A stretch of 63,996 bases of DNA, filler included. It is 5 parts of 5 records of this genome, joined end to end, with 100 filler letters (N's around TTAATTAATTAA, not from the genome) between each part and the next. Parts side by side here need not be neighbours in the genome. Positions count along the whole stretch, not along the records: positions 1 to 21,340 come from SRR20825010_1423; 4 more parts are not named here. One strand, 5' to 3'. How positions within the stretch are numbered: position 1 is the first letter of the stretch; each line of letters opens with the position of its first letter. The notes under the pieces are model-generated. The model was given only the letters and a program-made list of their open reading frames with translations, was not told the origin of the DNA and did not search any database. Below are positions 179 through 21,264 of the stretch, piece after piece. Both the position numbers and the translations under genes were made by a program.

Positions 179-225
179 ATCATTAAATACCGTGAGAACA
201 AAAATTGGAATTACTGTTATATTGC
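179..225 (+). promoter_or_regulatory. Palindromic operator-like box (179-196) plus Bacteroidetes -7-like element (218-225)
   Basis: ATCATTAAATACCGTGAG, 21-nt gap, then TATATTGC; same geometry as six other promoters in this contig. Confidence 0.6.
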
Positions 226-293
226 AAACAATTATCACCATTTTTAAGAGGTGAATAACTCATGTTTATGATAGGTATAAAGCAATACAAGAT

Positions 294-3200
294 ATGATTC
301 CAATAGAAGACGCTAATAAATACATCGAAAAACATCAAAAACCAGAAGTAGACCGTTTTGAATTTCGGTTGTTCTCTGAACCTTATAAAATTTTAGGGAA
401 AATATTAGGAAGAATCGAAAAAGAAGAAAGAGTATGGTATAATGTTTCAGATTTTATTGCAGCATTTGATGATCCGCTTACTATAAATCCTTGGTCGAAT
501 GAAGAAGGTATGCGCCTAGCAATGCAACTTTACGGGGTGGTACATGCACCTTATCTAGCTGGCATGTGGGATTTTATGAACACACTACCTTATCAAAAAG
601 GTTATGATAGACAAGCATTTAGATCAAAACCATCAAAAGATATTTTAATTAATAAAATAAATTACTTAATCCGATTTTTACAATTTAGTAGAATGGGTTA
701 TAATGGATTAACACTTCAAGAACACTTTATATACAGTACGTATCATCCTAATTTTAGCAGTTATTTTTTAGCCTCAGTTCTTCACAATGCCGAAGGAGTT
801 TTCGATGAATTACTAGACAATATTATTCAAGGTGAAGATGAAATTGGAGGAATTAGTGCAGATATTATTAAAGCGCTGTTACTTTCTGATGAGGAAAAAC
901 ATTGGGAGATGGTCTCTAAATTATTACTTGCGGCTCAACGCCAAGAAGGTTTAAGGCAAACCATTTTAGAATCGCTAGACGAGTCTAGTCTTGGTGCGCT
1001 TAAACATATAATCAATGTGGTATTAGAAAATGATTTAACACGCTTTAGTAGTGTAACTAGAGCTGTTAGTACTTGGTTTGGCTTAAGATGGGATCTCCCT
1101 AAAAAACCAGTTATAAATCGTGTTTTAACACTTGCACAATCTTTAATTTTAAATTTAAAAGAAGTAGATGGCTATCTTAAAAGTAAAGACAATTTAGAAG
1201 TTTTAGTCGGTTTATGGGCTATAGGAATTTTAGACGTCGATACAGCAAATAGGAAAGCACTAGATATAGTTTTCTCTTCCGAAGATAGAAACAAGAAGAT
1301 TTTAGCATTGTATTTTATTTGGAAAACAGAGCGTACTAATGATGCCTTAGTACCATATTTTACTAAAGAGCTAGGAAAAGATTATGCATTAGACCATTGG
1401 ATGGCGGTAAACTTACCTCCTACCACATTAAATAATGATACTTTTGAGCGCCTATTAACGGTTGCAAAATCTGTGACAGAAAAAGGCAAAACCTTCGAAA
1501 GTAAAATATTCTCGTGGTGGAGCTTTACACCTGAACCAACGTATTTCTTCCAGTTTATTATCAATAGCGCTACAGAAGCACAATTAGAGTTAATGGCGAA
1601 CGATTTTGAAGAATTTCCTACAGAATATAGAGAAACCTATATTCGTAAAGTATTTCCTTTACATTATAGCTATTCTTTTAATAATTATCAGCAACAGTCT
1701 AAGAAAAAAGAGCGCCTCAATTATGACCAAAATTTTTGGAAAAGAGCTTTAGCTAGACGTGCTATTTATAACCGAAATGAGGTAGTTATGGCTACGGGAT
1801 TGAATTTATTTAGTAAAATGCATTTGTATGACGCAGATTTGGAAATTGCTGAAGATTTACTAAGACGAAAACATAAAGGATTACGTACCTCTTTAATTCA
1901 GTTGTTGGTTGACTTGCCAGTAGACCGCTTAAGAAAGAGTGTTACAAATTTAGTAACAGCAAAAAATATTGATCAGCGATTAGCTGGTTTAGAAGTATTA
2001 ACTATTTTACACGACGCCAATAGACAATCGGATTTTATTGAAACGCAAATAAGCCTTTATAACGAGCGTCCTAAAATCTCTAAAAACGAACAAGTCTATT
2101 TAGATAAGTTTTCAAACAATACGCAAGAATATAATTATAATAATGGTTTTGGAGCGGTAAATTATGATGATTTATCACCACTTTATATTCCACAATCTCA
2201 TTTTAAAACAAAAACTAGTTTTTTAGATAAATTAGGAATTTCAACCTCAGACTCTTCATCCTTTAAGTTTAAAGAATTTATTAATGTCAACAAAATAGTT
2301 ACTCAAGTAAATCTATTGATTGCTCTTGTTACCGAAAACCGACATTATGAATACCAAATGGAAGGGTATCAAGGAGAAATGCATACTACATATATAGAGA
2401 AAGGGCTTCACCAAATAAAAGAATTGAGGGATGATGCTACAGCAGAAGACCATTTGCATAATATTCCTTTAGCCCACTTATGGATAGAATGGTATAAAAA
2501 AAGTGAGCTCAATGATTTTGAAATGTATGCTGCCATACGTTATATCAATAATAGTAGTTACCCTTACGGATATTATAAAATATTAGAACCATTTTTAAGG
2601 CAATATTACCCAGACTTATCTGGATTAAGTATAGGAAATAAAGACACCCATTACTCTAGGTTAAATAGTTATAACAAAATTTTAAAGCGTTTATTTAGGG
2701 CATATGTAGACACCAGCACAGTAGCCGACTTTAAACTTCATATGTTCGAAGACATGATTGCTAATTTCCCTGATAAATTTAAATTAATAAAGTTTCAAGA
2801 TAATGGTTACCATTATACAACAACTTATAATTGGACAAGTATAATACTTCAATTAACCCCAAATTTTAGTGTCAATAATTTAAACCAACTTACTTCAGAG
2901 CAACTTTTAAAGTACTGGAATATTAAAATGTATTTAATAGCACAAAACATTACACACCCTACAGTTGCTTCAAATATTAAAGTGCTTACTGATAATTCAG
3001 AAAAAAGAAGTAATCTGGAATTTCCTGAGATTGAAACCACCTTAAAACTATATGAAAACGGTTTAATTAACAACGATGATTTACTTCTCCAAGCTTTAAA
3101 TAAAAATCAATTAATAACCATTATTGATGGTGGTTTTAATTATAGGATGAATTACAAAAATGGATTAAAGCAAAATACAATTCCTAAAGAAGTCTTTCTC

Positions 3201-5294
3201 CCTTTAAAAACCAATTTATTAGAAACAGAGTTAGAACGAGGAGATTTGGCAACACCTGCTTCTAATTACATTAATGCAATTCATAGAGTTGAAGGTGTTG
3301 ATTATGTATTCAGAGTTCTAGAACGTTTAGGAGAAGAAACTTTTGAGCGCGGGTACAGCTATTATGGAGATAGTAAAAAGTCTAAGTTTAGTGCTATCCT
3401 CAAAATGACCCAGTTTAAAGACACCGAATCTTATGCTGATTTTGCTAGTCTTGCAGATGCTTTAAAAATTAGCAAAATACGTTTTATAGAATTGGCGTGT
3501 TATGCTACGCAGTGGGCTAGTGTTGTGGGCCAATATTTAAAAATTGATAATTTAGAAAATGCTGTTTGGTGGTTTCAAGCGCACGCTTCAGATTATATGA
3601 ATAGCGAAAAAGAAACTATTATTTCCCGGTACTCTAACATCCCAAAAAACGATTTCTCGTTAGGCGCAATAGATATCGATTGGTTTAATAAAGTATATAA
3701 TAGCTTAGGTAAAGCAAACTGGAAACTACTTCATAAGGCTGCAAAATATATTACAGATGGTAATGGACACAGACAAGTAAAATTATACTCTAGTGTTATA
3801 CTAGGGGAAGTTAAAATTACCGAAACCCTACAAAAAATTAAAGAAAAACGTGATAAAGATTACGTGCGCGCATTAGGATTAATTCCTTTAAGTAAAACCG
3901 TTCCAGAAAAAGATTTATTAAAACGCTACAATCTACTACAAGACTTTTTAAAAGAAAGTAAACAGTTTGGTCAACAACGACAAGAAAGCGAAGCTATTGC
4001 AGTGGAGATTGCTTTAGATAATTTATCTCGAAATGCGGGCTACCAAGATCGTGTGCGTTTTAGTTGGGCTATGGAAGCAAAAGCTACCCAAGCAATAATG
4101 AAAAATGCAGTTATAACCATAGATGAAACGGTTATAGAACTCGTCATTACAAACCATGGTAAAACAGAGATTAAGGTTTCCAAAGCTGGAAAATTATTAA
4201 AAAATATTCCAGCCAAACTACGCAAAGAAAAACAGGTTATAGCCTTAAAAGACAACAAAACCTATCTTTCTAGACAATACAGTAGAACACGTTTATCATT
4301 AGAAAACGCAATGGTCAACGAAGATGAATTTACTGCTTTAGAAATTCATAGTATGATGCAACATCCTATTGTACAAGTGATGTTGAGTAAGTTAGTAATG
4401 TACGTTCCTCAAAAAGAGATTTCAGGTTTTTATGATGAAGGTATTTTAACAGATTTTCATGGAAAAACACATTCGTTAGCTGAAGATGATGTTTTGCTTA
4501 TTGCACATGCTTCTCATTTGTTCCAAGTAGTTGAATGGGATAGCTACCAAAAATATTTATTTGCAGAACGGATTACCCAACCATTTAAACAAGTTTTTAG
4601 AGAATTATATTTAATAACCAATGATGAGCGTGAACATAGTAACCGCTCAGAACGTTACCAAGGATATCAAATTCAGCCTAAAAAAACCGTAGCACTTTTA
4701 AGAGGTCGTGGTTGGACCGTGAGTATGGAAGATGGCTTACAAAAAGTTTATCATAAATACGGTTTTATAGCTACAATGTATGCTATGGCCGACTGGTATT
4801 CCCCATCAGATGCCGAAGCACCAACCTTGGAGGATATTCGTTTTCACTCTATAGAAAACTATAAAACCATTCCTCTCTCTGAAATTCCACCGGTAATATT
4901 TAGTGAAATAATGAGAGACATCGATCTTGTAGTTAGTGTTGCTCACGTTGGTGGAGTAGATCCAGAAGCCAGCCATAGTACTATACAAATGCGTGCTGCA
5001 TTGGCTACAGCTTCAGCAAGCTTATTCAAACTTAAAAATAGTACCGTAAAAGAACGTTACATATTTATAAAAGGTACATTTGGCGAATACACCATACATT
5101 TAGGAAGTGGTCAGGTAAGCAAAAACGGACTTGCATTATCTATCATTCCAGTGCATAGTCAGCATAGAGGTCGTATGTTTTTACCATTTATAGACGACGA
5201 CCCCAAATCAGCAGAAATTATTTCTAAAATGAAATTACTTTCAGAAGATCATAAAATACAAGATCCAACAATTTTAGCGCAAATAAATAGCTAA
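294..5294 (+). CDS. Giant DUF4132-domain protein (MolR/YehI-like C-terminus; long helical N-terminal region, probably DUF5724-like)
   Basis: 1666-aa ORF; C-terminal motifs HPIV..ML..LV, IAHASHL, QPFKQVFRELY, IFSEIMRDIDLVVSVAH and FLPFIDDDPKSAEIISK are typical of DUF4132 proteins. Confidence 0.8.
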   Translation: MIPIEDANKYIEKHQKPEVDRFEFRLFSEPYKILGKILGRIEKEERVWYNVSDFIAAFDDPLTINPWSNEEGMRLAMQLYGVVHAPYLAGMWDFMNTLPYQKGYDRQAFRSKPSKDILINKINYLIRFLQFSRMGYNGLTLQEHFIYSTYHPNFSSYFLASVLHNAEGVFDELLDNIIQGEDEIGGISADIIKALLLSDEEKHWEMVSKLLLAAQRQEGLRQTILESLDESSLGALKHIINVVLENDLTRFSSVTRAVSTWFGLRWDLPKKPVINRVLTLAQSLILNLKEVDGYLKSKDNLEVLVGLWAIGILDVDTANRKALDIVFSSEDRNKKILALYFIWKTERTNDALVPYFTKELGKDYALDHWMAVNLPPTTLNNDTFERLLTVAKSVTEKGKTFESKIFSWWSFTPEPTYFFQFIINSATEAQLELMANDFEEFPTEYRETYIRKVFPLHYSYSFNNYQQQSKKKERLNYDQNFWKRALARRAIYNRNEVVMATGLNLFSKMHLYDADLEIAEDLLRRKHKGLRTSLIQLLVDLPVDRLRKSVTNLVTAKNIDQRLAGLEVLTILHDANRQSDFIETQISLYNERPKISKNEQVYLDKFSNNTQEYNYNNGFGAVNYDDLSPLYIPQSHFKTKTSFLDKLGISTSDSSSFKFKEFINVNKIVTQVNLLIALVTENRHYEYQMEGYQGEMHTTYIEKGLHQIKELRDDATAEDHLHNIPLAHLWIEWYKKSELNDFEMYAAIRYINNSSYPYGYYKILEPFLRQYYPDLSGLSIGNKDTHYSRLNSYNKILKRLFRAYVDTSTVADFKLHMFEDMIANFPDKFKLIKFQDNGYHYTTTYNWTSIILQLTPNFSVNNLNQLTSEQLLKYWNIKMYLIAQNITHPTVASNIKVLTDNSEKRSNLEFPEIETTLKLYENGLINNDDLLLQALNKNQLITIIDGGFNYRMNYKNGLKQNTIPKEVFLPLKTNLLETELERGDLATPASNYINAIHRVEGVDYVFRVLERLGEETFERGYSYYGDSKKSKFSAILKMTQFKDTESYADFASLADALKISKIRFIELACYATQWASVVGQYLKIDNLENAVWWFQAHASDYMNSEKETIISRYSNIPKNDFSLGAIDIDWFNKVYNSLGKANWKLLHKAAKYITDGNGHRQVKLYSSVILGEVKITETLQKIKEKRDKDYVRALGLIPLSKTVPEKDLLKRYNLLQDFLKESKQFGQQRQESEAIAVEIALDNLSRNAGYQDRVRFSWAMEAKATQAIMKNAVITIDETVIELVITNHGKTEIKVSKAGKLLKNIPAKLRKEKQVIALKDNKTYLSRQYSRTRLSLENAMVNEDEFTALEIHSMMQHPIVQVMLSKLVMYVPQKEISGFYDEGILTDFHGKTHSLAEDDVLLIAHASHLFQVVEWDSYQKYLFAERITQPFKQVFRELYLITNDEREHSNRSERYQGYQIQPKKTVALLRGRGWTVSMEDGLQKVYHKYGFIATMYAMADWYSPSDAEAPTLEDIRFHSIENYKTIPLSEIPPVIFSEIMRDIDLVVSVAHVGGVDPEASHSTIQMRAALATASASLFKLKNSTVKERYIFIKGTFGEYTIHLGSGQVSKNGLALSIIPVHSQHRGRMFLPFIDDDPKSAEIISKMKLLSEDHKIQDPTILAQINS

Positions 5295-5307
5295 TCTAAA
5301 AATCATA

Positions 5308-5398
5308 AGGGCGTTACCTCGCTTAGGCGGGGTCGGGCTTTCTGTTGCAAGTCCTCGTGCTATCGCACTATGGGCTTTTCACGACAATCCCTAACGCA
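5308..5398 (+). ncRNA. Structured intergenic element, probably a Flavo-1 RNA motif or Flavobacteriaceae repeat
   Basis: GC-rich patch in AT-rich DNA; GCGTTA (5311-5316) pairs with TAACGC (5392-5397); internal GGTCGGGCTTTC...CAAGTCCTCG...GGGCTTTTC...CAATCCC resembles the Flavo-1 consensus as recalled. Confidence 0.6.
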
Positions 5399-5415
5399 AA
5401 AAAAATCCGTATACT

Positions 5416-5829
5416 ATGGAACTTACATTACAACTAAAAAAACTCGGGAAGAAAAAAGTAAAAGAAGTTCCTTTTACCTTAGAAGAATCACCTAAAAACT
5501 TAGAAGCCTTATTAGTTGGTTGTGTAAAACATCAAGTTGAGGCTTTTAATGCAAAACTACAAGAAGTCAATGTTATTGGTTTTTTAAGTCCAGCCGAAAT
5601 ACAAGAACAAGCGCAAAAGGGTAAAGTAGATTTTGGAGAAATAACCAACACCGATTTAGCAAATCTGCAAAAAGCAATCGACAATGTTTTATTAGCCTTT
5701 AAAGACGGACTCTTTGTAGTCTTTATAGACAATAAGGAAATTACCGATTTAAAAACGCCGCTAAAACTAACTTCGAAAAGTATTGTTACCTTTATTAGAA
5801 TGACATTTTTAGTGGGTACGTATTGGTAA
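5416..5829 (+). CDS. Conserved DUF4132-partner protein, possible ubiquitin-like (beta-grasp) fold
   Basis: 137 aa; C-terminus FVVFIDNKEITDLKTPLKLTSKSIVTFIRMTFLVG-TYW matches the MoaD/ThiS C-terminal strand pattern. Confidence 0.7.
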   Translation: MELTLQLKKLGKKKVKEVPFTLEESPKNLEALLVGCVKHQVEAFNAKLQEVNVIGFLSPAEIQEQAQKGKVDFGEITNTDLANLQKAIDNVLLAFKDGLFVVFIDNKEITDLKTPLKLTSKSIVTFIRMTFLVGTYW

Positions 5830-5909
5830 TTTCTTTTAATTAATTATGAAAGAAGGTTGTCTTTACAATCTATTCTGAATTTGTTTCATTTAATTTAAGC
5901 ATCCACTAT

Positions 5910-6815
5910 TTACAACCATTCTGTATCAATACCCATTTCAATAAACTCATCATAAATAGTATCTTTAGCATAGCATAAGGTTGCTTTTTTTAAATTAGGG
6001 AACTGTTTTGCATCGGTACTGTGTTCAATATCCCAATACTCCACTGCTCCACCAGAAAAAGGAGCTAAATTCATATAAATTTCGTTTCCGCCATCTTGAT
6101 AGATTTCTGTAACTTCTTCAGCCAAACGCTTTGGGATTGGTAAATCTTTAAAATATTGTTCTACTTCAGCAATAGGCCCGTAACCTTCCTCATCAATATC
6201 TATCTCGCGACCTCTATACCATTTTGCAAATTCGTGAATATCAAATTGAGGCTTCAACAATTCTTTAGTATACATTAGCTCTTCAATAACCGATAATTTA
6301 AATCCAAAATCTTCGAAAGTAATAACTTCTTCATCAAGTCGCTTAATTTTGTATTTATCTTCCGGTATTCCTTCCCAACGCACATACGGTTTGTAAGCAC
6401 TTATTTCTATTGCGCTAACGGTGTCTTCGTTCATATCAAACCAAGCACTAATGCCATTCGAGACTAAAGCACCACTATCATCATTTTTAAATAATTTTAT
6501 ATGCTGGTTTTTATGCGATTTATAGTAGCTTACAATTTCTTGATTGTTGTAATGAAATATCCCTGAAAATGCTTTTTTTGGACTAAAGTCATAGGTTTCA
6601 GGTTGTAATTCTATAATTATAGATTCTATAAGTTCCCCACTTTTTGAGTAAGCCAATATTCCTAGATCATCCCAAGTAAAAATAGTATTGTTTTTCTTCT
6701 TTAAGGTTCGATAATTTTTAGTTAAATGGTCTTTTAACACATCCAAAGACACTGGAAACTCAACCATTCTTGAATTTATTTGAAAACCTTTTGGAGATAA
6801 ATGTAACGCAATCAT
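5910..6815 (-). CDS. Hypothetical protein with C-terminal DUF6892-like domain
   Basis: 301 aa; FEDFGFKLSVIEELMY...YFKDLPIP...EIYQDGGNEIY...FPNLKK pattern recalled for DUF6892. Confidence 0.65.
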   Translation of the reverse strand: MIALHLSPKGFQINSRMVEFPVSLDVLKDHLTKNYRTLKKKNNTIFTWDDLGILAYSKSGELIESIIIELQPETYDFSPKKAFSGIFHYNNQEIVSYYKSHKNQHIKLFKNDDSGALVSNGISAWFDMNEDTVSAIEISAYKPYVRWEGIPEDKYKIKRLDEEVITFEDFGFKLSVIEELMYTKELLKPQFDIHEFAKWYRGREIDIDEEGYGPIAEVEQYFKDLPIPKRLAEEVTEIYQDGGNEIYMNLAPFSGGAVEYWDIEHSTDAKQFPNLKKATLCYAKDTIYDEFIEMGIDTEWL

Positions 6816-6833
6816 AAGTCTATTTTAAGATTT

Positions 6834-6880
6834 CAAAAATAATAGCTTAATCTATATTTTTAATCCCTATCTTCCGTGAT
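6834..6880 (-). promoter_or_regulatory. Operator-like box (6863-6880) plus -7 element (6841-6834)
   Basis: Minus strand reads ATCACGGAAGATAGGGAT, 21-nt gap, TATTTTTG (perfect TAnnTTTG). Confidence 0.7.
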
Positions 6881-6947
6881 ATTTTATATCTTGAAGCTAT
6901 TCCTTTTTAGAATTATTTAAATTAACGCATATACTAAAAAGCCAAAA

Positions 6948-6994
6948 ATCCCCTATTTCGGGGATAAAATCTAAAAAGATTAGCTCTAAATTTG
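6948..6994 (+). promoter_or_regulatory. Operator-like box (6948-6965) plus -7 element (6987-6994)
   Basis: ATCCCC-TATTTC-GGGGAT (perfect 6-bp arms), 21-nt gap, TAAATTTG. Confidence 0.75.
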
Positions 6995-7010
6995 TTGAAA
7001 ACCTTTTATT

Positions 7011-7361
7011 ATGGAAGATCAAGTAAAGAGTGCAGCGTTTATAGCATCATTAAAACGCAATAACGAAAAAATAAGAGACGATCGTGCGCATGCAATTGCA
7101 GAAGATGCACAATTAATGTACAAACGTGAAACCGAAGATTTGGCATTATCGCTAAAACGCTTAAAACGTGAACAAGAAAATATGCTTGATATGAGCCCTA
7201 CAGATGCCAACAGTCTGGTCTTAGCATCCGATTTTAATGCGAAAGATTACGTAGCAAAAGACATCGAAATGTCTGTAAAAATAAGGAACTTAGAAATAAA
7301 ATTAGAATTAGCCAAAAAACGTTATTTACATTTATTTGGTGGAACAATAAACGAATTATAA
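7011..7361 (+). CDS. Small coiled-coil hypothetical protein
   Basis: 116 aa with heptad-like helical segments; first gene of a tightly spaced three-gene operon. Confidence 0.75.
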   Translation: MEDQVKSAAFIASLKRNNEKIRDDRAHAIAEDAQLMYKRETEDLALSLKRLKREQENMLDMSPTDANSLVLASDFNAKDYVAKDIEMSVKIRNLEIKLELAKKRYLHLFGGTINEL

Positions 7362-7363
7362 CT

Positions 7364-8230
7364 ATGGGAGGAGGAAGATTTAGTCACGATGCGTATTCTC
7401 GATTGAGAAAATCTAAAGGCTACAGTAATAAATCTAGAGAAGAAATTTTTACGGCTAGACAAATAGATCCTGAAATGGATCCTACAAAAGTAATAGTTAG
7501 AGAGTCTCGAGATTCTGAGGAACATCCTGAAACGCTTTCTATTATTGTTGCTTTAGATGTAACAGGAAGTATGGGGTTTGTGCCAGAGCATATTGTAAAA
7601 GAAGCTTTGCCAGACCTTATTGGTTCTTTAATGGAAGCTGGTATTGAACATCCACAAGTGTTATTTTTAGGCATTGGAGATTTTATTTATGATAATGCAC
7701 CATTACAAGTTGGACAATTTGAGTCATCAGCAGAGTTATTAGACCGTTGGTTAACCCGAGTTTATTTAGAAGGTGGCGGAGGTGGAAACAATCAAGAAGG
7801 CTATAATCTAGCACATTTATTTGCTGCAAGACATACATCGATTGATTGTTGGGAAAAAAGACAACAAAAAGGATTTTTATTTACCATTGGTGATGAACCT
7901 GTTTCTTCTGACATTCCTGCTGAAATTATAAAGAGATATACCCTTGCAGATGAGGCAGAAACCATAACTACAGAAGCCATTATTAAAGAGGCTCAAGAGA
8001 AATACAATGTTTTTCATATGCATTTAGAACATAATGAATTGTCTAAGCAAGAAAAACGTAAGGGAAATTGGAAAACGCTTTTAGGCGAAAATTATATGGA
8101 AATACCAGATTTTAAATCCGTGGCAAAACGGATTGCAGAAGTGGTCATTAACAACCATAAACCAGGTGCCGCTACCAATAGATTTAATGCTTCTGGGAGT
8201 TCAGATATTAAAGTAGAGAATATGCTATAA
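7364..8230 (+). CDS. VWA (MIDAS) domain protein
   Basis: ALDVTGSM MIDAS-type motif, LEGGGGGNNQEGY loop, FTIGDE; N-terminal MGGG. Confidence 0.85.
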   Translation: MGGGRFSHDAYSRLRKSKGYSNKSREEIFTARQIDPEMDPTKVIVRESRDSEEHPETLSIIVALDVTGSMGFVPEHIVKEALPDLIGSLMEAGIEHPQVLFLGIGDFIYDNAPLQVGQFESSAELLDRWLTRVYLEGGGGGNNQEGYNLAHLFAARHTSIDCWEKRQQKGFLFTIGDEPVSSDIPAEIIKRYTLADEAETITTEAIIKEAQEKYNVFHMHLEHNELSKQEKRKGNWKTLLGENYMEIPDFKSVAKRIAEVVINNHKPGAATNRFNASGSSDIKVENML

Positions 8231-9364: not shown

Positions 9365-9510
9365 ATCAGTATGCCAATTGCCAACGCATTAGGCATTTTA
9401 TAAAAAATGTATTTTTAGATCCAAGGCAAGCCTTGGTGTATTTAAATTTCCATTATACCGTAAAGTAATTCTGATGCATCACTCTCTAGAAGTATTTCGT
9501 TATTTTCAAA

Positions 9511-9557
9511 ATCATTAGTTTCAGGGATAAAGAACTCATTAGTTCAAAGTACCTTAG
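9511..9557 (+). promoter_or_regulatory. Operator-like box (9511-9528) plus -7-like element (9550-9557)
   Basis: ATCATTAGTTTCAGGGAT, 21-nt gap, TACCTTAG. Confidence 0.6.
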
Positions 9558-9581
9558 TTGCTTTAAACAACAATAGAGAAA

Positions 9582-10634: not shown

Positions 10635-10658
10635 ATGTATTAAAAAAGAAAATAATTT

Positions 10659-13160: not shown

Positions 13161-13163
13161 ATA

Positions 13164-13823
13164 ATGACACAAGATATCACACCCAAAATTCAGAACCAAT
13201 TAAATTTATCGGCCTTGATTTTGAAGAAAAATCATAAAAACGCAGCCTTAAAAAGTTGGTCGGGTTTTAACCTAAAAGATGCAATGCACGTTAAGCATGC
13301 GGAAAGACTTTTAACTATGTACGGTATTAAATCAGGCTTGCATTTACGGAACAGTTTACAACGTTACGAGAGCGGACAAATGGTATCTCATACTTTTGAA
13401 AAATTAGCCGCAGCGTTTCGCAATGATACCAGTAAGACTTTTGAAGCTAAATACCAAGCTCTAGAAAGTCCTAAAACCAAAAACACCTACAAAATGGTGT
13501 GGAAATATCGTTTCAGTTTAAAAAATCAAAAACTCAGAGGATATGAAATGGCAATGTACATTTTTCAAATGAGATTAGGCCTCGTCTTAGACTTTATAAC
13601 AACAGAAGAAATGATGTTGCGTTTAGAAGAAGCCTACAATATTACAAAGTCCACGTTTTCTAGTTGGGGAGAATTTCACCGCAACGTGTGCTTGGGAGAT
13701 GAGTACGTTTTAGGGGCTACAGAACTCGATGTTAGTAAATTCCCAGGGACAGAAACACTTTGGGAGCACTACCAACGCTTACATATAGCACATGCCGATT
13801 GGTTTAAAGAATGGAAAAAATGA
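13164..13823 (+). CDS. DUF1266-like protein
   Basis: LLTMYGIKS...GYEMA...RLG...TFSSWGEFHRNVCLG resembles DUF1266 (WGI / AWD..R / F.SW.EF...Y..G). Confidence 0.65.
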   Translation: MTQDITPKIQNQLNLSALILKKNHKNAALKSWSGFNLKDAMHVKHAERLLTMYGIKSGLHLRNSLQRYESGQMVSHTFEKLAAAFRNDTSKTFEAKYQALESPKTKNTYKMVWKYRFSLKNQKLRGYEMAMYIFQMRLGLVLDFITTEEMMLRLEEAYNITKSTFSSWGEFHRNVCLGDEYVLGATELDVSKFPGTETLWEHYQRLHIAHADWFKEWKK

Positions 13824-16063
13824 GGATAACAGAACAAGAGCTTATACAACAAATTGAGCGTGCAGAACAACTGTACAAGACCAACCTTTATATGCATTTA
13901 CAGCCTGTAATTAGTAATATACAAGAGCACCTAGAGCTTTTAACTAATAATTCAGACTATGCCAAATATTACCGCATTTATATGCTGTATATTGGGATTT
14001 ATGAAGAACTGAATATGCAAGTTTTGCAGTCTTATTTACAAGCATTAATTAACATTAATGAAGTAGAAGCATCAGATTACGAATACGTTTGTAGTTATTA
14101 CAAACAATGTGAAGAAACAGTGTACCAAGAAGCTTTAATGCTATATCCATACAACGAAACTTTACACCTACATTACGCTTTAAAATTACAAGAAGATAAA
14201 CGTTTTAAAGAAGCTATTGTTACTTTAAAATATATCCTAGAATGTTATCCTGCCTCCACAGAAGCTCGATTCTTACTTTGGGATATTGAAGCAACTCAAT
14301 TAGCACATTTATGTGCATCAAACGAAGAAGCAAACTGCTATGAACTTTTAGAATTAGCTTCGGCTACTCATAATGAAGAAGTTTTAAAAGGATTACAATT
14401 AGATCATCGATTAGATAAAGCAAATCAAACTTTAGCCTATATACAGGTTGCACTGTGGGAAGAAAGGTCTACTGAAATAAAACAACATTGGAATACAGAA
14501 TGGAAACTTTTAGAATTGACAGCAGTAACACGTATGCTCTTGGCAGATTATGCAAAATCTTTTATGATGTACGATATGGTATCTCAAGTTTTAAAAGCAC
14601 CTTCAGAACCAGAGTTTCCAGAAGAAGAGTATAGTAATTTTGAGGAATATCAAACGTTTATCAAGGCGTTTGCTACTTCTGGCTGGCAATTGGCACAACA
14701 TCAATATGTATTGATAGGAAATTCGGCATATTTTTATTCAAAAAATAAAGAAATCTTAGATATTAGTGTAGAAAGAGGCTTAGCTTTAAATCCTAAAAAC
14801 CCATTACTATTGGTATTAAAGGCAAAATCCTTTTTTTTTGTCAATAATTATAACGAGACCGGAGTAAATTACCACGAAGCATTTAAAAACGGTCTCCGTT
14901 TGAGTGAATATCTATTTTATTTACTAGAAGTAAATAGTAGAATTGAAAATTGGCAAGGTATATTAGATATTGTTGCTCAGTTTCATAAAGGGACTCCTCC
15001 TACACTTAAAACCTTATTTTTTAAAGCACGTGCACTCGTCAAATTAAGACAATTTGATGAAGCTCTGGAAACGATTAATGTAGCGCTTTCTGATTTTCCG
15101 TTACCACCTCATTCTTACGCACCATGGTTGTATAACTTAAGAATGATTATTCATAAACAAAACCATAACTACACGGCTTTTTTTGAAGATATGCAGTCAG
15201 AAATCAATTATTATACTATTGGCGACTCAGAATATTGTAGCACAATGAATATGTGTATTGAAGCCCTTATTGAAATGGGCAATTATCAAGAATGTTACAA
15301 ATATGCCATATATAACCACGAACAAGGACAATTATTACCAGAATTATATCCTGTGTTTCTGTGGATTTGTTTTTATGATTATTTAGAAAAACCTGATGAT
15401 ATAGCAGACGCTTCAGAACTAGATTTAATACAAGAACCTTCTACTTTTATAGAATACAGAACCAATGGTTTAATATATTGGATGCTAGGTAACATCTGTG
15501 CTGCTACAAATGCATTACAACAAGCGGCACAACTAGCCACAAACAAAGCTTACTATTTAAAACTAGCATTAAGTTGCGCTAAAGAGGATTTTAATACTAC
15601 AAAAAGTATTGCTGCTTGCCAAATTATTAAAACCCAGATACCAGAATCTAGTGACTGGAAAACAGACTATCTGTTAGCCGATTTATTAAAAACAGGGAAG
15701 CATTATAAAAAAGCATTAGCTAGTTTTAACCAATTATTACAAAGCTATCCAGACTATTCGTTTTTTGAATTTCCAAAAGACAATAATAATATGATGCTAG
15801 CCACACTTAAAACATTATCTAAAGCTATAGAGAATGAAGGAGATTACATCAAATACAACGCTATGCTTTTAAGTAAAGAGAATCCTTCTGCTAACGCATT
15901 ATTAGAACATTTAGAGGTCGTACAAACGCACTTTGAAACTGATAAATTCCTTCTGCATAATTTATTAGAACAAATTTTCAAGTTAAATATTGATTTAGAA
16001 AATAATGAATTAGAATTGTTAAAAGACATCAAATCTAAAATAAGAACCTCATATTTCAATTAA
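13811..16063 (+). CDS. TPR-repeat protein
   Basis: 750 aa with multiple TPR-like helices (e.g. KARALVKLRQFDEALETINVAL); ATG at 13820 forms an ATGA overlap with the upstream stop. Confidence 0.8.
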   Translation: MEKMRITEQELIQQIERAEQLYKTNLYMHLQPVISNIQEHLELLTNNSDYAKYYRIYMLYIGIYEELNMQVLQSYLQALININEVEASDYEYVCSYYKQCEETVYQEALMLYPYNETLHLHYALKLQEDKRFKEAIVTLKYILECYPASTEARFLLWDIEATQLAHLCASNEEANCYELLELASATHNEEVLKGLQLDHRLDKANQTLAYIQVALWEERSTEIKQHWNTEWKLLELTAVTRMLLADYAKSFMMYDMVSQVLKAPSEPEFPEEEYSNFEEYQTFIKAFATSGWQLAQHQYVLIGNSAYFYSKNKEILDISVERGLALNPKNPLLLVLKAKSFFFVNNYNETGVNYHEAFKNGLRLSEYLFYLLEVNSRIENWQGILDIVAQFHKGTPPTLKTLFFKARALVKLRQFDEALETINVALSDFPLPPHSYAPWLYNLRMIIHKQNHNYTAFFEDMQSEINYYTIGDSEYCSTMNMCIEALIEMGNYQECYKYAIYNHEQGQLLPELYPVFLWICFYDYLEKPDDIADASELDLIQEPSTFIEYRTNGLIYWMLGNICAATNALQQAAQLATNKAYYLKLALSCAKEDFNTTKSIAACQIIKTQIPESSDWKTDYLLADLLKTGKHYKKALASFNQLLQSYPDYSFFEFPKDNNNMMLATLKTLSKAIENEGDYIKYNAMLLSKENPSANALLEHLEVVQTHFETDKFLLHNLLEQIFKLNIDLENNELELLKDIKSKIRTSYFN

Positions 16064-16084: not shown

Positions 16085-18052
16085 ATGAAGTTATCTCTTA
16101 CATATTTTATATTCAATTTCTTCTTTTATATAGGAATTAGCACCTTGTCTTATGCTCAAGACATAGATAGTACGATTGAATTAGATTCTCTTGCAAACAT
16201 TTATTATACCAATATTTATACGCAACCCCAAATTGCAAAATTAGCCGCTACAAAATGGCTCGAAGGAAGCAAAAATTCAGATTTGGGACTTCAAGAAGCA
16301 AGTGCCTTGTATGCATTAGGAAACCTTAGTAATATTATTGGAGAATATAAAAACACCATAAAATATACAAATCAAGCTATTGATTTACTTAAAAAACTGG
16401 ACACTAAAAAAGGATTAGCGGCTTGTTATAATATCCTCGCTTCTGCCTATAAAAATTTAGGTGAATATCCGAAAGCTATTGACTGTTTTATGAATTGCTT
16501 AAAGTATTCAAAACAAACCAATAGCCAAATACAGGAAGCTAATGCATATCTAAATATAGCAACATTGTATCTGCTTCAAAAAGATTATAAAAAATCAGCA
16601 GAAAATCTAGATCGTGCTGCCAATCTCTATCGCTCTTTAGGAGATGATGATGGAGTGCTCACAACGCTATTTAATTTTGCAAATATTTTAAAAGAACAAG
16701 GTAAGTTTAGTCAAGCAAGAAAGCATTACCAAACCGTTTTAGATTACAGAGAAAAAGAAGGTAATAAAGCGGCTGTTGCCTATGTAAATATAAATCTTTC
16801 GCAAATGTTAGTGGAAGAAGGTAAGTGTAAAGAAGCTGTTGTAGCTCTAAAAAAAACATTAGCTCTTTTAGAAGAGCTAAAATTTAATTCAGACATTAGT
16901 ATTGTTTTAAACGATTTAGGTTTATGCGAAACAAAATTAGGTAATACAATTGCAGCGATAAATTATTTTCAACGCGCTTTAGCTATTGGCGAAGAACAAT
17001 CGCTACACCCATACAGTTCCGACATATACAAGAATCTGGCAAATTTATATCAAAAAGAAAACAATTATAAAAAAGCATTTGAATTCTATCAAAAAGGAGT
17101 GGCAAGTACTGCGGAGCAAAACTCACTTGATAAAAAGGTATATGTAGCTGAAATACAAGAACGCTATGAAACAGCATTAAAGGAAGCTAGAATTCAATTA
17201 TTAGAAAAAGAACAAAAATTAGGAGAAACAGAATTGCAAAAAGTAGAGCTCACTGTAAAACGCCAACGCTTAGTTAGAAATGTTTTAATAGCTGGATTTA
17301 TATTGGTTTTTATTACTTTAATTATTTTAAGGGTTTCTCATATTAAAAGACTACGCATTCAAAAAGAATTGAGTATCCAGCAAGAGGAAAATGCTAAGCA
17401 GCAAATAAATAAAATGATAAATGATCATAAACTATCTGTTATTGAGCGCTATCAAGAAGGTCAAGATGAAGAACGTTCAAGACTTGCTCGGGAAATTCAT
17501 GATGGTATTGGCAGCGATTTAGCAAGCATCAAAATAGCGTTCGAGCAGTATTCAGAACAACACCATGATGATTTCCAATCTAGGAGAATCGCTTCTGCTA
17601 TTAATAATGCTTGTGCGGATGTTCGTAGCCTTTCTCATCAATTACACCCGCTCCCCTTTTCAAAAATAGGATTCACTAGTTTTTTAAGTGATTTTATTGA
17701 TCAAATAACTAAAAAAACAGCTACTGAAATTCAAACTTTTTTCTTTCCAGAAGAAGCGATTGATGAGTTACCTGATTTCTTACTAGCAGACGTATACCGT
17801 ATTGTACAAGAATTAATTAATAATATTCTAAAACATGCAGAAGCCAAGCATGCTGCTGTTCAACTCACCATGCATGAAGATCATTTAAATATTGTTATAA
17901 ACGATGATGGTATAGGTTTTCAAAATAACAAAAAATCGGGAATAGGGCTTCGAAATATAAAAGAACGCTTACATAAAATTCAAGGTAGTTTAGAAATCGA
18001 TTGTAGCCCAGGACGCGGAACATCAATTACCATTGACATACCAGTAAATTAA
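16085..18052 (+). CDS. TPR-containing membrane sensor histidine kinase (HisKA_3/NarX type)
   Basis: N-terminal signal, TPR array, one TM segment, ERSRLAREIHDGIG H-box, YRIVQELINNILKHA, DDGIGF, GIGLRNI. Confidence 0.92.
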   Translation: MKLSLTYFIFNFFFYIGISTLSYAQDIDSTIELDSLANIYYTNIYTQPQIAKLAATKWLEGSKNSDLGLQEASALYALGNLSNIIGEYKNTIKYTNQAIDLLKKLDTKKGLAACYNILASAYKNLGEYPKAIDCFMNCLKYSKQTNSQIQEANAYLNIATLYLLQKDYKKSAENLDRAANLYRSLGDDDGVLTTLFNFANILKEQGKFSQARKHYQTVLDYREKEGNKAAVAYVNINLSQMLVEEGKCKEAVVALKKTLALLEELKFNSDISIVLNDLGLCETKLGNTIAAINYFQRALAIGEEQSLHPYSSDIYKNLANLYQKENNYKKAFEFYQKGVASTAEQNSLDKKVYVAEIQERYETALKEARIQLLEKEQKLGETELQKVELTVKRQRLVRNVLIAGFILVFITLIILRVSHIKRLRIQKELSIQQEENAKQQINKMINDHKLSVIERYQEGQDEERSRLAREIHDGIGSDLASIKIAFEQYSEQHHDDFQSRRIASAINNACADVRSLSHQLHPLPFSKIGFTSFLSDFIDQITKKTATEIQTFFFPEEAIDELPDFLLADVYRIVQELINNILKHAEAKHAAVQLTMHEDHLNIVINDDGIGFQNNKKSGIGLRNIKERLHKIQGSLEIDCSPGRGTSITIDIPVN

Positions 18053-18058: not shown

Positions 18059-18694
18059 GTGGAGAAAACAAACATTATAATTGCAGACGATCATTTAATG
18101 TTCATTGAAGGGATCAATACCATTTTAAAAAATATGGACGAAATTGGAGAAGTGCATATTGCAACTGAAGGGAAACAGGTTATTAGATTACTCTCTCAGT
18201 TTAAAATTGGTTTAATTATAAGCGACATTAGTATGCCCAAAATGGACGGTATAGAATTGCTTACAGAAATTAAAAAAAAGCATAAAGACGTAAAAATAAT
18301 CATGTTGAGCATGCTCGACAATCATAGAACAGTACATAAAGTCATACAAAAAGGGGCAGACGGTTTTGTTCCGAAGTTTACAAGTAAAGAAGAGCTACAA
18401 AAAGCGGTACGTTCCGTTTTAAATGATGAACAATACTTTTCTGAACTCATAAAACAACGATATATGGAAAGTGTTTTTGAACGCAAAAAATATAAAAACA
18501 TCGAACTATCACCAAGAGAGAAGGATGTCTTAGCGCTTTTAGGAGAAGAGCTTACTTCTAAAGAGATTTCAGAAAAATTATTTATCTCTGTAAATACAGT
18601 AGAAACGCATAGAAAAAATATCCTATTAAAAACAGGTTCTAAAACTACAACTGGCGCAGTACGATTTGCAATAGAGTCTGGACTATTTGATTAA
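18059..18694 (+). CDS. NarL/LuxR-family response regulator
   Basis: IADDH, DISMPKMDG receiver motifs; LSPREKDVL...EISEKLFISVNTVETHRKNI LuxR HTH; GTG start. Confidence 0.95.
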   Translation: MEKTNIIIADDHLMFIEGINTILKNMDEIGEVHIATEGKQVIRLLSQFKIGLIISDISMPKMDGIELLTEIKKKHKDVKIIMLSMLDNHRTVHKVIQKGADGFVPKFTSKEELQKAVRSVLNDEQYFSELIKQRYMESVFERKKYKNIELSPREKDVLALLGEELTSKEISEKLFISVNTVETHRKNILLKTGSKTTTGAVRFAIESGLFD

Positions 18695-18781: not shown

Positions 18782-19765
18782 CTATTCCGTTCTAATATCA
18801 TAAAAGGCCAAAGCAGCTCTAATCTCTTTTAATTCCTTATTAGATGTAGTTATATCATTCTTTTCTGTAAGCATCTCTCCGCGATAAATAAACCTTGATT
18901 CCAAATCAAAATAAACAATATAAATTCCCTTTAAAGGGTTTTGATATTTCTCATTTTCTTTATTATTTATTCTAGTATCTTCTAAATATTGAACCCAGGC
19001 TCCCTTAGATAAAGAAGATTTATCCAAGAATATTTTTCTATACTCACTAATTTTATAATAAGGATACGTGAGCTCCAATTTGGTTTGAATATTATTTTCA
19101 ATTTTAGTTTTAAAAAGTTCAAAATTAGTTACATTTTCAGATAAGTGAAAAGCATGTACTTTCCACATATTGTCTTCTAATTTCAAAGGCACTGTTATGA
19201 ATCCTTCAGGGTAACTAGGTGTTTTAACTAATAAGCTGTGTTCATAACCATTATTTAATACGTCATAGGAAGCATTCAATTTATCAACAAATTTGGTAAT
19301 TATTTCTTCCAATGTATCTGAAGTTAGTGCTTCTTTAAAAATTAATTCAATCACCGCTAAACCATATTTTACATCTAGAATATCACTTTTAAAATCTACA
19401 ATTACCGCTTGTTTAGCTTCATGATATTTCAATGCTTTTTGATATAGATCATTAAATTCTATGTGATATGAAGCTATATAATCGGCAATCAATATTTTTT
19501 TAGCATCAAAATATGTGTAAAACTCTATATCAGGATTTTTTTTATGATATATATGTACAGAAAATGAATTAGGATTCATAGTAGCTGCATTAAAAAATCT
19601 ATTTAAATTTTTATAAGTAAGCTCACCATTATACTCTCTTTCAAGATATTCTTCTAAATTTTTAGAGGCTTGTTTCTTAGATATTCCACCCACTATTTGT
19701 GCGCAATTAGTAAAAAGAAGTAAGATTCCTAATAAGCAAAGACCTATAATAATTATAGTTTTCAT
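18782..19765 (-). CDS. Hypothetical exported protein or lipoprotein
   Basis: Start reassigned to ATG 19765 (MKTIIIIGLCLLGILLLFTNC, lipobox-like); the promoter box at 19793-19786 lies inside the longer 19804 call. Confidence 0.7.
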   Translation of the reverse strand: MKTIIIIGLCLLGILLLFTNCAQIVGGISKKQASKNLEEYLEREYNGELTYKNLNRFFNAATMNPNSFSVHIYHKKNPDIEFYTYFDAKKILIADYIASYHIEFNDLYQKALKYHEAKQAVIVDFKSDILDVKYGLAVIELIFKEALTSDTLEEIITKFVDKLNASYDVLNNGYEHSLLVKTPSYPEGFITVPLKLEDNMWKVHAFHLSENVTNFELFKTKIENNIQTKLELTYPYYKISEYRKIFLDKSSLSKGAWVQYLEDTRINNKENEKYQNPLKGIYIVYFDLESRFIYRGEMLTEKNDITTSNKELKEIRAALAFYDIRTE

Positions 19766-19785
19766 AAATGATATTTTATACCATA

Positions 19786-19832
19786 TAAATTTAAGTCTGT
19801 TCAAGTTTTAAACGCTCACTGTTTTCCGTGAA
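19786..19832 (-). promoter_or_regulatory. Operator-like box (19815-19832) plus -7-like element (19793-19786)
   Basis: Minus strand TTCACGGAAAACAGTGAG, 21-nt gap, TAAATTTA. Confidence 0.65.
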
Positions 19833-19840
19833 TTTATATT

Positions 19841-19887
19841 ATCACTTAAATGAGGTGTTTATTTGAGAATGTGTTCTAATATCTTTG
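19841..19887 (+). promoter_or_regulatory. Operator-like box (19841-19858) plus -7 element (19880-19887)
   Basis: ATCACTTAAATGAGGTGT, 21-nt gap, TATCTTTG (perfect TAnnTTTG). Confidence 0.6.
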
Positions 19888-19916: not shown

Positions 19917-20312
19917 ATGGGATTACAAGAAAAAAGAGCTGCAAAGGCTATAGAAGATCAATATTTAGGAGATTATCAAAAAGAAATTAATGAGGTGGTT
20001 GGTAAAGAATTACCTATAAACATTAATTGGGATACTTTTGAAATGGATTTCATAAAATTTGTTCCTAGTGTATGCTTGCAACGCCTTACTGATGGTTTAA
20101 GAGAAGTTTGTAAAGATGCTATGGGAAAAGAAGCTGTTCAAGAGGTTGTTAACTCTATAAAGGTTTATTGCATTCCAAATGAAGGAGCTGAAGAAAAAAA
20201 GGGACTTAATCTAGAAAACGGTGTGTTTTCTTTAACTGCTTGTTGGGGAGGCCATCACAGTGGATACTTTACAGACTTAGTAATACGCGAATATTTAGAG
20301 AATAACTTATAA
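19917..20312 (+). CDS. Conserved hypothetical protein (MGLxEKRA family)
   Basis: 131 aa with its own promoter and terminator; similar to the C-terminal half of 20503-21192. Confidence 0.8.
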   Translation: MGLQEKRAAKAIEDQYLGDYQKEINEVVGKELPININWDTFEMDFIKFVPSVCLQRLTDGLREVCKDAMGKEAVQEVVNSIKVYCIPNEGAEEKKGLNLENGVFSLTACWGGHHSGYFTDLVIREYLENNL

Positions 20313-20340
20313 AATATAATGACATTATTTTGAGGGGTCA

Positions 20341-20502: not shown

Positions 20503-21192
20503 TTATAAATGAGCTTCTATTTGTTCTTGTAATTGGATTGCATTTGGAAAACTTCTAAATACTTTAGAAGTGTCTATTGTAATAAAAAGTACACCTTCTA
20601 CTATTCTAGTTTTATTCTCTTTAGCTAGATTAAATTCAATTTTTGAAACTGAAGTTATAAAAGCTTCTTTAGCCAATGAATCTGAAGCTATTCTAGAAAT
20701 TGTTTCTTTGAGTAAAACTAATACTTTTAATGCATAATATTTCCCTGTATCTTCTGGTGTATTCTTATCATTATAAACTATGGAAATTTCTTTATCTATA
20801 ATAGACTTTACTACTAACTCTAAATCTTTGATATCTTTTTTTAGCTGAAGTATAGTTGGTATTTCTTCATCTTCAGGAATGAAAGGAATTTTTCCGTCAG
20901 ATAAAAGGTAGGCATATTTATTAATGTTACTTATTGAAATTGAAGAAATAGCATGAGCTGATATGTAATTAAATTGAGCCTTCCCGTCAAATAAATCACA
21001 TAATAAAATTGCTTTCTTGTCAGAATCATAATTCACAAAAAAACCAGAAGTACTATCTAAATTCATACTAATGGTAACTTGTGGCATTTGTGGTCTTTCC
21101 TTATCTCTTTCTATAGCTGCAATCTCTAGAAGCATTTCTAAAACTTGATTATTATCTAATACTGGTAATTGGAGCATTGTTTTAAAATCCAT
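20503..21192 (-). CDS. Two-domain hypothetical protein; C-terminal domain paralogous to 19917-20312
   Basis: 229 aa; LKETISRIASDSLAKEAFITSVSKIEF vs LTDGLREVCKDAMGKEAVQEVVNSIKV. Confidence 0.75.
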   Translation of the reverse strand: MDFKTMLQLPVLDNNQVLEMLLEIAAIERDKERPQMPQVTISMNLDSTSGFFVNYDSDKKAILLCDLFDGKAQFNYISAHAISSISISNINKYAYLLSDGKIPFIPEDEEIPTILQLKKDIKDLELVVKSIIDKEISIVYNDKNTPEDTGKYYALKVLVLLKETISRIASDSLAKEAFITSVSKIEFNLAKENKTRIVEGVLFITIDTSKVFRSFPNAIQLQEQIEAHL

Positions 21193-21217
21193 ATTTACTT
21201 TAATTTAAGTTTAATTA

Positions 21218-21264
21218 CAAAGTTGGCGCAATGCACTACATTTTAAGTAACCAATTTCAGTGAT
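21218..21264 (-). promoter_or_regulatory. Operator-like box (21247-21264) plus -7-like element (21225-21218)
   Basis: Minus strand ATCACTGAAATTGGTTAC, 21-nt gap, CAACTTTG. Confidence 0.6.

Follow-up and report, generated by a model that had tools for sequence, protein, structure and literature searches.

A shared dyad, a 21-nucleotide gap and a -7 box precede the seven transcription units of a flavobacterial gene island and point to its own NarL-type regulator

We analyzed a stretch of 63,996 bases (here called the window), which consists of five contigs joined by N spacers. All seven transcription units of its first contig, contig A, are preceded by the same composite promoter: an imperfect dyad of the ATCAC-N8-GTGAT type (the box), a gap of 21 nucleotides (nt), and a -7 box resembling TAnnTTTG. 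Contig A, from a marine flavobacterium, is an accessory island of 21 kb with about 15 genes, most of them belonging to families without known function. Among them are the genes for a sensor histidine kinase and a NarL/LuxR-type response regulator, and we consider it probable, judging from the sequence, that dimers of this regulator bind the dyad, centered at about -42.5, and activate the seven units, the regulator's own operon among them. A sequence-only reading of this DNA had proposed both the seven sites and an island-wide regulon. Direct reading confirmed every letter of the seven boxes (18 nt each) and of the -7 boxes (eight letters each), and the gap of 21 nt at each site. The seven promoters are given below with their scores from a leave-window-out matrix.

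Promoter 1: 179..225, plus strand; box 179-196, -7 box 218-225 (TATATTGC); 5' of the DUF5724/DUF4132 gene; score 27.7.
Promoter 2: 6834..6880, minus strand; box 6863-6880, -7 box 6834-6841 (TATTTTTG); 5' of the DUF6892/DUF7738 gene; score 25.7.
Promoter 3: 6948..6994, plus strand; box 6948-6965, -7 box 6987-6994 (TAAATTTG); 5' of the operon for a 116-amino-acid (aa) protein, a 288-aa protein and a PurA-like protein; score 30.4.
Promoter 4: 9511..9557, plus strand; box 9511-9528, -7 box 9550-9557 (TACCTTAG); 5' of the six-gene kinase/regulator operon; score 28.6.
Promoter 5: 19786..19832, minus strand; box 19815-19832, -7 box 19786-19793 (TAAATTTA); 5' of the gene for a protein of about 322 aa; score 24.6.
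Promoter 6: 19841..19887, plus strand; box 19841-19858, -7 box 19880-19887 (TATCTTTG); 5' of the 131-aa gene; the weakest, score 15.8.
Promoter 7: 21218..21264, minus strand; box 21247-21264, -7 box 21218-21225 (CAACTTTG); 5' of the 229-aa gene; score 26.6.

Three of the seven -7 boxes match TAnnTTTG perfectly and three have one mismatch, giving six that match at least five of the six fixed letters. The seventh, TATATTGC at the DUF5724 promoter, is a conserved variant, TAnnTTGC in place of TAnnTTTG in all five aligned genomes (window 218-225; L011, L020, L021, L024). Of the 39 scored sites that have an open reading frame (ORF) downstream in the locus, 35 have a start codon 14 to 86 nt after the -7 box, as expected for promoters.

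Before giving weight to these sites, one has to consider that the box might be unselected, either a chance pattern picked out by eye or the product of shared descent of a promoter-bearing repeat along with its cassettes. The bare pattern fits such a view: with up to two mismatches, ATCAC-N8-GTGAT occurs 27 times across the window versus 23.3 ± 5.0 times in shuffled sequences, which is no enrichment. However, contig A has just 1,553 non-coding bases, and these contain six of the 27 matches against an expectation of about 0.57 (Poisson tail, ∼3e-5). The spacing is more telling. Boxes were located in the window and in two related genomes by a matrix of the box alone (overlapping loci add some duplicates). 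Of these, 22 had a perfect TAnnTTTG after 21 nt, and none had one at any other gap from 12 to 30 nt; 5-of-6 matches to the -7 box numbered 11 at gap 21 and at most 2 at any other gap. Further loci, most of them preselected by a model that contains the spacing, gave 27 -7 boxes at gap 21, 3 at gap 22, and none elsewhere.

Ranking led to the same result. With a matrix built from 49 sites in other genomes, the seven sites took ranks 1 to 7 in the 64-kb window. In the leave-window-out test, six of them scored 24.6 to 30.4 and the seventh (19841-19858) scored 15.8, while the next candidate, which is in coding sequence, scored 12.9; the maxima of 20 simulated windows ranged from 2.2 to 15.0. Six sites are thus unambiguous; the seventh is weak by score, yet it stands at an orthologously conserved place, and the boxes at the orthologous 131-aa-gene promoters in L005 and L006 are also degenerate. 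Together, the spacing and ranking statistics exclude chance.

No further member was found in the window. A sequence-only profile, R1, made from 34 aligned 61-nt sites, gave no additional site there at E ≤ 10, and the box-like sequences at 61275-61292 and 44745-44762 were rejected as members for want of a -7 box at 21 nt. A generic rule proved too strict: requiring an 18-bp palindrome paired at no fewer than 7 of 9 positions, then 21 nt and a -7 box, it recovered one of the seven window sites. A scan with the sigma-70 consensus found 79 matches where 90 were expected and is uninformative for the phylum Bacteroidota. A scan flagged box 6948-6965 as terminator-like on the minus strand; we rejected this because no minus-strand gene reads into it, the right-hand neighbor being a plus-strand gene, and the box is one of the seven sites with identical geometry. 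A terminator-like hairpin does occur at 9421-9436, between the operon behind promoter 3 and promoter 4.

The composite promoter is conserved where its surroundings are not. A scan with the kinase identified syntenic loci in Winogradskyella costae Z3138 and Winogradskyella psychrotolerans RS-3 (kinase identity, 77%). The sequence-only reading had suggested looking at such loci in the Flavobacteriaceae, and the box, the 21-nt gap and the -7 box were found there at every orthologous promoter, the gap being exactly 21 nt while the spacer and the other intergenic DNA had diverged. The DUF5724 promoter illustrates this: in five genomes its box and TAnnTTGC are invariant, and its spacer is diverged. 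Alignments of orthologous intergenic regions keep the box, an A-tract after it, the -7 box, and the length, not the sequence, of the spacer. Across six islands, 42 distinct sites yield the consensus AA(A/T)-ATCACTGAAT(A/T)C(A/C)GTGAT-AAAA-N17-TAnnTTTG, in which the full dyad is 18 bp long, longer than the 5+5 half-sites first recognized, and is followed by the A-tract. Box positions T2 and G14 are invariant among the 42 sites, and the last position of the -7 box is G in 34 of them.

Gut Bacteroidales defense islands include cassette arrays with repeated intergenic promoters, which is the precedent for shared descent. An alignment of 34 sites shows conservation of the box, the A-tract and the -7 box alone. 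Non-orthologous promoters share these parts and differ in spacers and flanks; they are therefore not copies of a repeat, and a repeated promoter cassette or mobile repeat was ruled out because the sites are not alike over their full length. Because the orthologous promoters keep exactly the elements that the non-orthologous ones share, and because the statistics exclude chance, descent or chance is largely refuted as an explanation, and we regard it as barely credible. A CRP/FNR-type site was also rejected. The consensus for such sites is TGTGA-N6-TCACA or TTGAT-N4-ATCAA, but here the order of the half-sites is reversed (TCAC...GTGA) and their separation is 8 nt.

Two side observations concern the DNA around promoter 1. 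An inverted repeat, TCACC-N10-GGTGA, lies just 3' of the DUF5724 -7 box (window 232-254) and is present in the window and in G069 (L021), not in G062 or G177. At window 128-152 is the right half of a further box (ATTCTGTGAT), which aligns with the box of a divergent minus-strand leucine-rich-repeat (LRR) gene of W. costae; its left half and -7 box are degenerate, and the contig end is nearby.

In the related whole genomes that we scanned, the motif and its spacing are not common at random promoters, a possibility that the sequence-only reading had itself raised; strong hits are confined to the island in the two island-bearing genomes and are missing from the nearest island-free one. In G062 (4.1 Mb) and G063 (4.3 Mb), both of which supplied training sites for R1, all R1 hits of at least 22.5 bits are in the island stretch of one contig. 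In G001, the nearest genome compared, which is island-free, R1 peaked at 16.3 bits. Among 81 genomes of the genus to which G062 belongs, 9 have an ortholog of the kinase (71 to 77% identity), and R1 hits at E ≤ 1e-4 were found in exactly those 9 (8 to 13 each) and in none of the other 72; 7 of the 9 had given no training site. The hits are on the kinase contig, within about 40 to 46 kb, in eight of these genomes, and in the ninth, G366, the kinase contig (C7) has part of them and a second contig, C21, the rest. A sample of 151 genomes from the family (150 genera) had clusters of strong hits in G177 (9 hits on one contig), G069 (9 on one contig, 11 in total) and G187 (4 hits), and exactly these three have kinase orthologs, at 64 to 78% identity, the range seen across all motif-bearing islands; G070, which has a kinase paralog of 30% identity, has no R1 hit. 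At E ≤ 1e-3, R1 found nothing in 147 genomes of the class outside the family. Kinase and motif occur together in 9 of 81 and in 3 of 151 genomes, and the motif in 0 of 147; the island is therefore a patchily distributed accessory unit of the Flavobacteriaceae, and the composite motif goes with it.

A search with the DUF6892 protein in 61 relatives of the nearest genome did not find the island, returning weak partial hits alone. This null says little about accessory status, because contig A has a G+C content unlike that of the other contigs, and the 9 of 81 genomes are the better measure. The contigs are as follows.

Contig A: 1-21340, G+C 31.8%.
Contig B: 21441-44966, G+C 40.1%.
Contig C: 45067-55566, G+C 39.4%.
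Contig D: 55667-60220, G+C 57.2%.
Contig E: 60321-63996, G+C 56.1%.

Because these values differ so strongly, contigs B to E are only a weak same-genome control for contig A. The assembly behind the window may be mixed, with contig A from an organism other than that of contigs B to E. The G+C content of contig A resembles that of Winogradskyella-type DNA (about 33%).

The candidate regulator and its kinase are encoded by the last two genes of the six-gene operon behind promoter 4, 6 nt apart.

Sensor histidine kinase: 16085..18052, plus strand; signal peptide, tetratricopeptide repeats (TPR), one membrane helix, HisKA_3 (PF07730) and HATPase_c (PF02518).
Response regulator: 18059..18694, plus strand; receiver PF00072 (E = 2.1e-27) and GerE/LuxR helix-turn-helix (HTH) PF00196 (E = 2e-14, residues 150-204).

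In the kinase, an N-terminal signal peptide is followed by about 370 residues of TPR, a membrane helix at about residues 408-425, and then the HisKA_3 and ATPase domains. Because the signal peptide and TPR precede the single membrane helix, the TPR sensor probably faces the periplasm. An alignment of 8 homologs shows no change at receiver residues D10, D11, D56 and K106 of the regulator, and its orthologs from the islands are 87 to 91% identical. The regulator matched the NCBIfam models for MctR, NarL, UvrY, FimZ and RcsB below threshold and reached the cut-off of none (MctR, the best, 151.7 versus 300 bits; NarL, 109.3 versus 250 bits); orthology to a named regulator is therefore rejected. 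It is the sole island protein with a DNA-binding domain recognizable by Pfam or NCBIfam. The seven unassigned island proteins have no such domain in either database, even at E ≤ 1.

Paralogous kinase/regulator pairs elsewhere connect this type of protein to this type of box. The best R1 hit outside the islands in G062 and G063 was the promoter of an operon for a paralogous TPR-HisKA_3 kinase and receiver-GerE regulator, with ATACCTGTTTTCGGGGAT, 21 nt, and TAAATTTG. Three loci chosen by regulator homology alone have a box and a 21-nt gap directly 5' of the kinase operon: ATCCCATTATTCAGTGAG ... TACATTTG in G030, ACCCCTGTATTCGGGGGT ... TATATTTG in G076, and TTCCCAGAATAGAGGGAT ... TAAATTGC in G075. 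Clusters in G026 and G066 have boxes of the ATCCCTG-N4-CAGGGAT type (e.g., ATCCCTGTTTTCAGGGAG and ATACCTGAAAACAGGGAT) 5' of SUKH/LRR-like genes and of a kinase operon; their kinase/regulator pair is 25%/46% identical to that of the island, and they contain no other island gene. Altogether, a related dyad with the 21-nt gap was found at 5 of 10 distinct paralog loci, and the kinase and regulator genes are the only ones common to these loci and the island. The boxes differ from those of the island mainly at position 4 (A in the island, C at the paralogs). At three of the paralogous kinase operons (L017 6470-6476; L036 near 9323; L037 near 4487), the ATG comes 3 nt after the -7 box, which suggests leaderless transcripts.

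The predicted geometry of the promoter would suit a class II activator. Transcriptome mapping in Flavobacterium psychrophilum places the primary-sigma TAnnTTTG at -12 to -5 (PMC9723704). If the island -7 boxes have that position, the 21-nt gap places the 18-bp dyad at -51 to -34, with its center at about -42.5. A LuxR dimer binds the lux box, which is an inverted repeat of 20 bp centered at -42.5 (PMC3376562). The -7 box of the island is like that of a Bacteroidota primary-sigma promoter, and the place where the -33 TTG would be is taken by the end of the dyad and the A-tract. That TTG normally lies about 19 nt upstream of the -7 box; it is absent at spacers of 16 to 22 nt in all three window sites examined, and the consensus after the box is AAAA.

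The sign of regulation cannot be read from sequence alone, and the same regulator might act as a repressor whose operator covers the -33 region until the signal relieves repression. The box does abut or overlap the place of the upstream promoter element, and the -7 boxes are good enough (3 of 7 perfect; G last in 34 of 42) that the promoters might fire without help. Yet a repressor needs overlap alone, not fixed phasing, and the phasing here is rigid: all 22 perfect -7 boxes are at gap 21, and the further loci split 27 to 3 between gaps 21 and 22. Such rigidity fits contact with polymerase on one face of the helix. The predicted center at about -42.5 is the LuxR-type activator position, and AAAA, not TTG, occupies the -33 place. 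We consider repression unlikely.

A fixed distance to the -7 box and an A-tract would also be features of an element read by the polymerase itself, such as the upstream element of an alternative sigma factor or an UP-like element, acting without a transcription factor. The TAnnTTGC form of the DUF5724 promoter in all five genomes agrees with that, since a TAnnTTGY class (SM5) is known at the same position in F. psychrophilum (PMC9723704). However, an 18-bp dyad fits a dimer rather than sigma region 4, Pfam found no sigma factor gene in the window's island, the -7 box is of the primary-sigma type at most sites, and island-free congeners have no such promoters. We therefore think a polymerase-read element very unlikely.

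Several observations weigh against activation by the island's own regulator. At only 5 of the 10 paralog loci was a box found; none is clear at L035, L038, L040 or L041, and at L042 the check used the strict palindrome rule alone. The recognition helices differ (SVNTVETHRKN in the island versus SKHT[VI]E[TS]YRKN in the paralogs) while the boxes differ only subtly, so that there is no clean covariation, although this appears compatible with binding by the regulator. In G076, G030, G181, G075 and G026, box-type sites occur with no kinase or regulator homolog within 6 kb; they fit regulon members and prove nothing, and they may belong to the regulons of paralogous regulators. The seventh window site, at 15.8, barely exceeds the simulated maximum of 15.0. 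Control promoters in contigs B to E also rarely have TTG at -33 (2 of 14), and for that reason we dropped the missing TTG as strong evidence for activation. Finally, ten further genes travel with the island, being present in at least five of the six islands, so the co-occurrence of motif and regulator arises partly from the island moving as a unit, and co-occurrence alone cannot name the protein that binds the box.

That last point leaves room for another binder, either a conserved island protein (of 116, 131, 137, 229 or 288 aa) or a host factor of these genomes. The 116-aa and 131-aa proteins are conserved like the regulator (88 to 93% and 80 to 89% identity, respectively) and have no assigned fold, and they are among the many island genes as widely shared as the kinase and regulator. 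Against this, the lack of any DNA-binding domain in the candidates counts heavily, as does the fact that paralog loci with the same geometry share only kinase and regulator with the island. A host-wide factor would predict sites outside the island, and none was found in G062, G063 or the genus scans. We give another binder a small probability. The regulator of the island remains the probable one because it has the only recognizable DNA-binding domain, because the best non-island hit is at a paralogous operon, and because paralog loci are boxed. Conservation, restriction to islands, and co-occurrence also favor the island-wide regulon originally proposed.

In the mechanism we favor, the kinase would sense an envelope or periplasmic signal through the TPR domain outside the membrane and phosphorylate the NarL/LuxR-type regulator through its receiver. 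A dimer of the regulator, with its GerE HTH, would then bind the 18-bp dyad, ATCACTGAA followed by T(A/T)CAGTGAT. The dyad would take the place of the -33 element, where class II activators classically bind, as LuxR does at the lux box. The bound dimer would recruit primary-sigma RNA polymerase to all seven promoters, so that about 15 genes would come on together. Through the box of promoter 4 (9511-9557), the kinase/regulator operon would be autoregulated, with positive feedback. That the regulator binds the dyad and activates transcription, where transcription starts, and what the signal is are all predictions in this scheme.

How does this system compare with known ones? The regulons of NarL/NarP, UhpA, RcsB and DosR likewise combine a receiver with a GerE domain, a HisKA_3 partner, and inverted-repeat sites. 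NarL sites have a 7-2-7 arrangement of heptamers, and their half-site distance is shorter than that of the 7-4-7-like dyad of the island. The tra box, at 18 bp, has the length of the island box. Class II activation by LuxR/TraR at the lux or tra box shares with the island a GerE/LuxR HTH and a dyad of 18 to 20 bp; that of the island is predicted to be centered near -42.5, as the lux box is (PMC3376562), and to replace the upstream element. In contrast, the island has a phosphorylatable receiver and a TPR sensor kinase rather than an acyl-homoserine-lactone domain, a Bacteroidota -7 core promoter, and an unrelated box sequence. The features of a NarL/FixJ-type regulon that can be read in sequence are all present: a receiver with its aspartate and acidic pocket, a GerE HTH, an adjacent HisKA_3 kinase, and dyad sites. 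We classify the system, at this level, as a putative NarL/FixJ-family two-component regulon with a LuxR-type class II operator. Full-text searches on the promoter motif with its regulators, the DUF families, and flavobacterial LuxR, TPR and kinase proteins, with subscription-only papers outside their range, found no description of it.

Contig A has 15 ORFs in seven transcription units, listed here apart from the kinase and regulator genes given above.

Unit 1: 294..5829, plus strand; a 1666-aa DUF5724+DUF4132+DUF7737 protein (294-5294), then a 137-aa protein (5416-5829).
Unit 2: 5910..6815, minus strand; a DUF7738+DUF6892 protein (Pfam).
Unit 3: 7011..9364, plus strand; a 116-aa helical protein, a 288-aa protein, and an adenylosuccinate-synthetase-like (PurA-like) protein.
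Unit 4, genes 1 to 4: 9582..16063, plus strand; a 350-aa SUKH-domain protein, an 833-aa protein, a DUF1266 protein, and a 750-aa TPR protein.
Unit 5: 18782..19750, minus strand; a protein of about 322 aa with a hydrophobic N terminus, secreted or lipoprotein-like.
Unit 6: 19917..20312, plus strand; the 131-aa protein, 80 to 89% identical between islands.
Unit 7: 20503..21192, minus strand; a 229-aa protein.

Neither a box nor a -7 box was found between the two genes of Unit 1. The G+C-rich 121-nt gap between them holds, at window 5327-5402 on the minus strand, a sub-threshold match to the Flavo-1 RNA (RF01705; 32.3 bits versus a gathering score of 42; E = 0.002), which is unrelated to the boxes; an Rfam scan of contig A found nothing else. 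The Unit 3 operon is 73 to 93% identical in all six islands. Its 288-aa protein has a weak match to AbiEii-like nucleotidyltransferases (E = 0.0015), and its PurA-like enzyme is divergent. For Unit 5, the ORF extends over 18782-19804, and the true start is probably an internal ATG near 19750. PADLOC gave weak matches alone (PDC-M40A for the SUKH protein and AbiEii for the 288-aa protein), and the ESM Atlas placed the 116-aa and 131-aa proteins in clusters without names. No toxin gene was recognized in the window's island. All sequence words of window 5300-10700 are shared with runs labeled as five different organisms (three studies), and part of them with marine metagenomes; no RNA run was listed for this stretch.

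Genes for the DUF5724, 137-aa, DUF6892, 116-aa, 288-aa, PurA-like, SUKH, kinase, regulator, ∼322-aa and 131-aa proteins are present in at least five of the six islands. The island of W. costae is larger, about 40 kb, and those of related genomes reach about 45 kb. The additional W. costae genes encode two LRR proteins, a SuFu-like and a SUKH protein, DUF2314, two DUF1963, DUF2262 and DUF1444 proteins, a GNAT protein, an EndoV-like protein, and a 2OG-Fe(II) oxygenase. The extra units carry more boxes, and the flanks of the W. costae island carry none. Behind one box there, 14 genes run on the same strand (L012 5596-14701, minus strand, G062:C48). As a side observation, this run includes two DUF1963, DUF2262, DUF2314, SUKH, SuFu-like, 2OG-Fe(II) oxygenase and EndoV-like genes, a polyimmunity-like content. 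Also as an observation apart, the box-type sites distant from kinase/regulator homologs (L027-L034, in G076, G030, G026, G181 and G075) precede genes for a DUF1963 protein, a CN-hydrolase, an 837-aa protein, a 1921-aa FG-GAP/HYR surface protein, an alpha-2-macroglobulin, and a TraB/PrgY-family protein.

Heterogeneous polyimmunity loci contain SUKH, SuFu, LRR and DUF2314 (Imm34) as immunity families (Zhang et al. 2012, PMC3482391). The larger islands share these four families with such loci and also have DUF1963, DUF2262 and DUF1444. The window's island has one SUKH-domain protein. It lacks a recognized toxin gene, however, and the island core genes (DUF5724/DUF4132, DUF6892, PurA-like) are not among the immunity families named in the excerpted text of PMC3482391. 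A further difference is that a two-component system and a shared operator span the whole island; the same excerpts report no dedicated regulator for such loci, and according to them no immunity protein was known to act as a transcription factor. Full-text searches likewise found no dedicated regulation of polymorphic-toxin immunity loci.

These comparisons invite a wider reading, which we put forward as speculative. The island may be an inducible, horizontally moving conflict or polyimmunity island directed against interbacterial toxins, in which a periplasm-facing kinase detects attack or envelope damage and one operator switches on a battery of immunity-like and uncharacterized genes, up to the 14-gene run of W. 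costae, along with the kinase's own operon; it may also be one instance of a family-wide TPR-kinase/GerE grammar (18-bp CnCTG-N4-CAGnG dyad, 21 nt, -7 box).

Few activator operators have been defined in marine Flavobacteriaceae, and here one is readable, with a rigid geometry and a named candidate regulator. About 15 genes of the window become one testable unit, and their families (DUF5724/DUF4132, DUF6892/DUF7738, DUF1266, PurA-like) are mostly of unknown function. A single regulator would thus be an experimental handle both on families of unknown function and on immunity-like families, since the larger islands are rich in families of polymorphic-toxin immunity. Two of the island-bearing strains are named, sequenced isolates, so the regulon is testable in culture. 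If the family-wide grammar holds, the regulons of TPR-kinase/GerE pairs in the Flavobacteriaceae would be readable from sequence; that grammar, of which 5 of 10 paralog loci give an indication, could allow regulon prediction for many orphan two-component systems.

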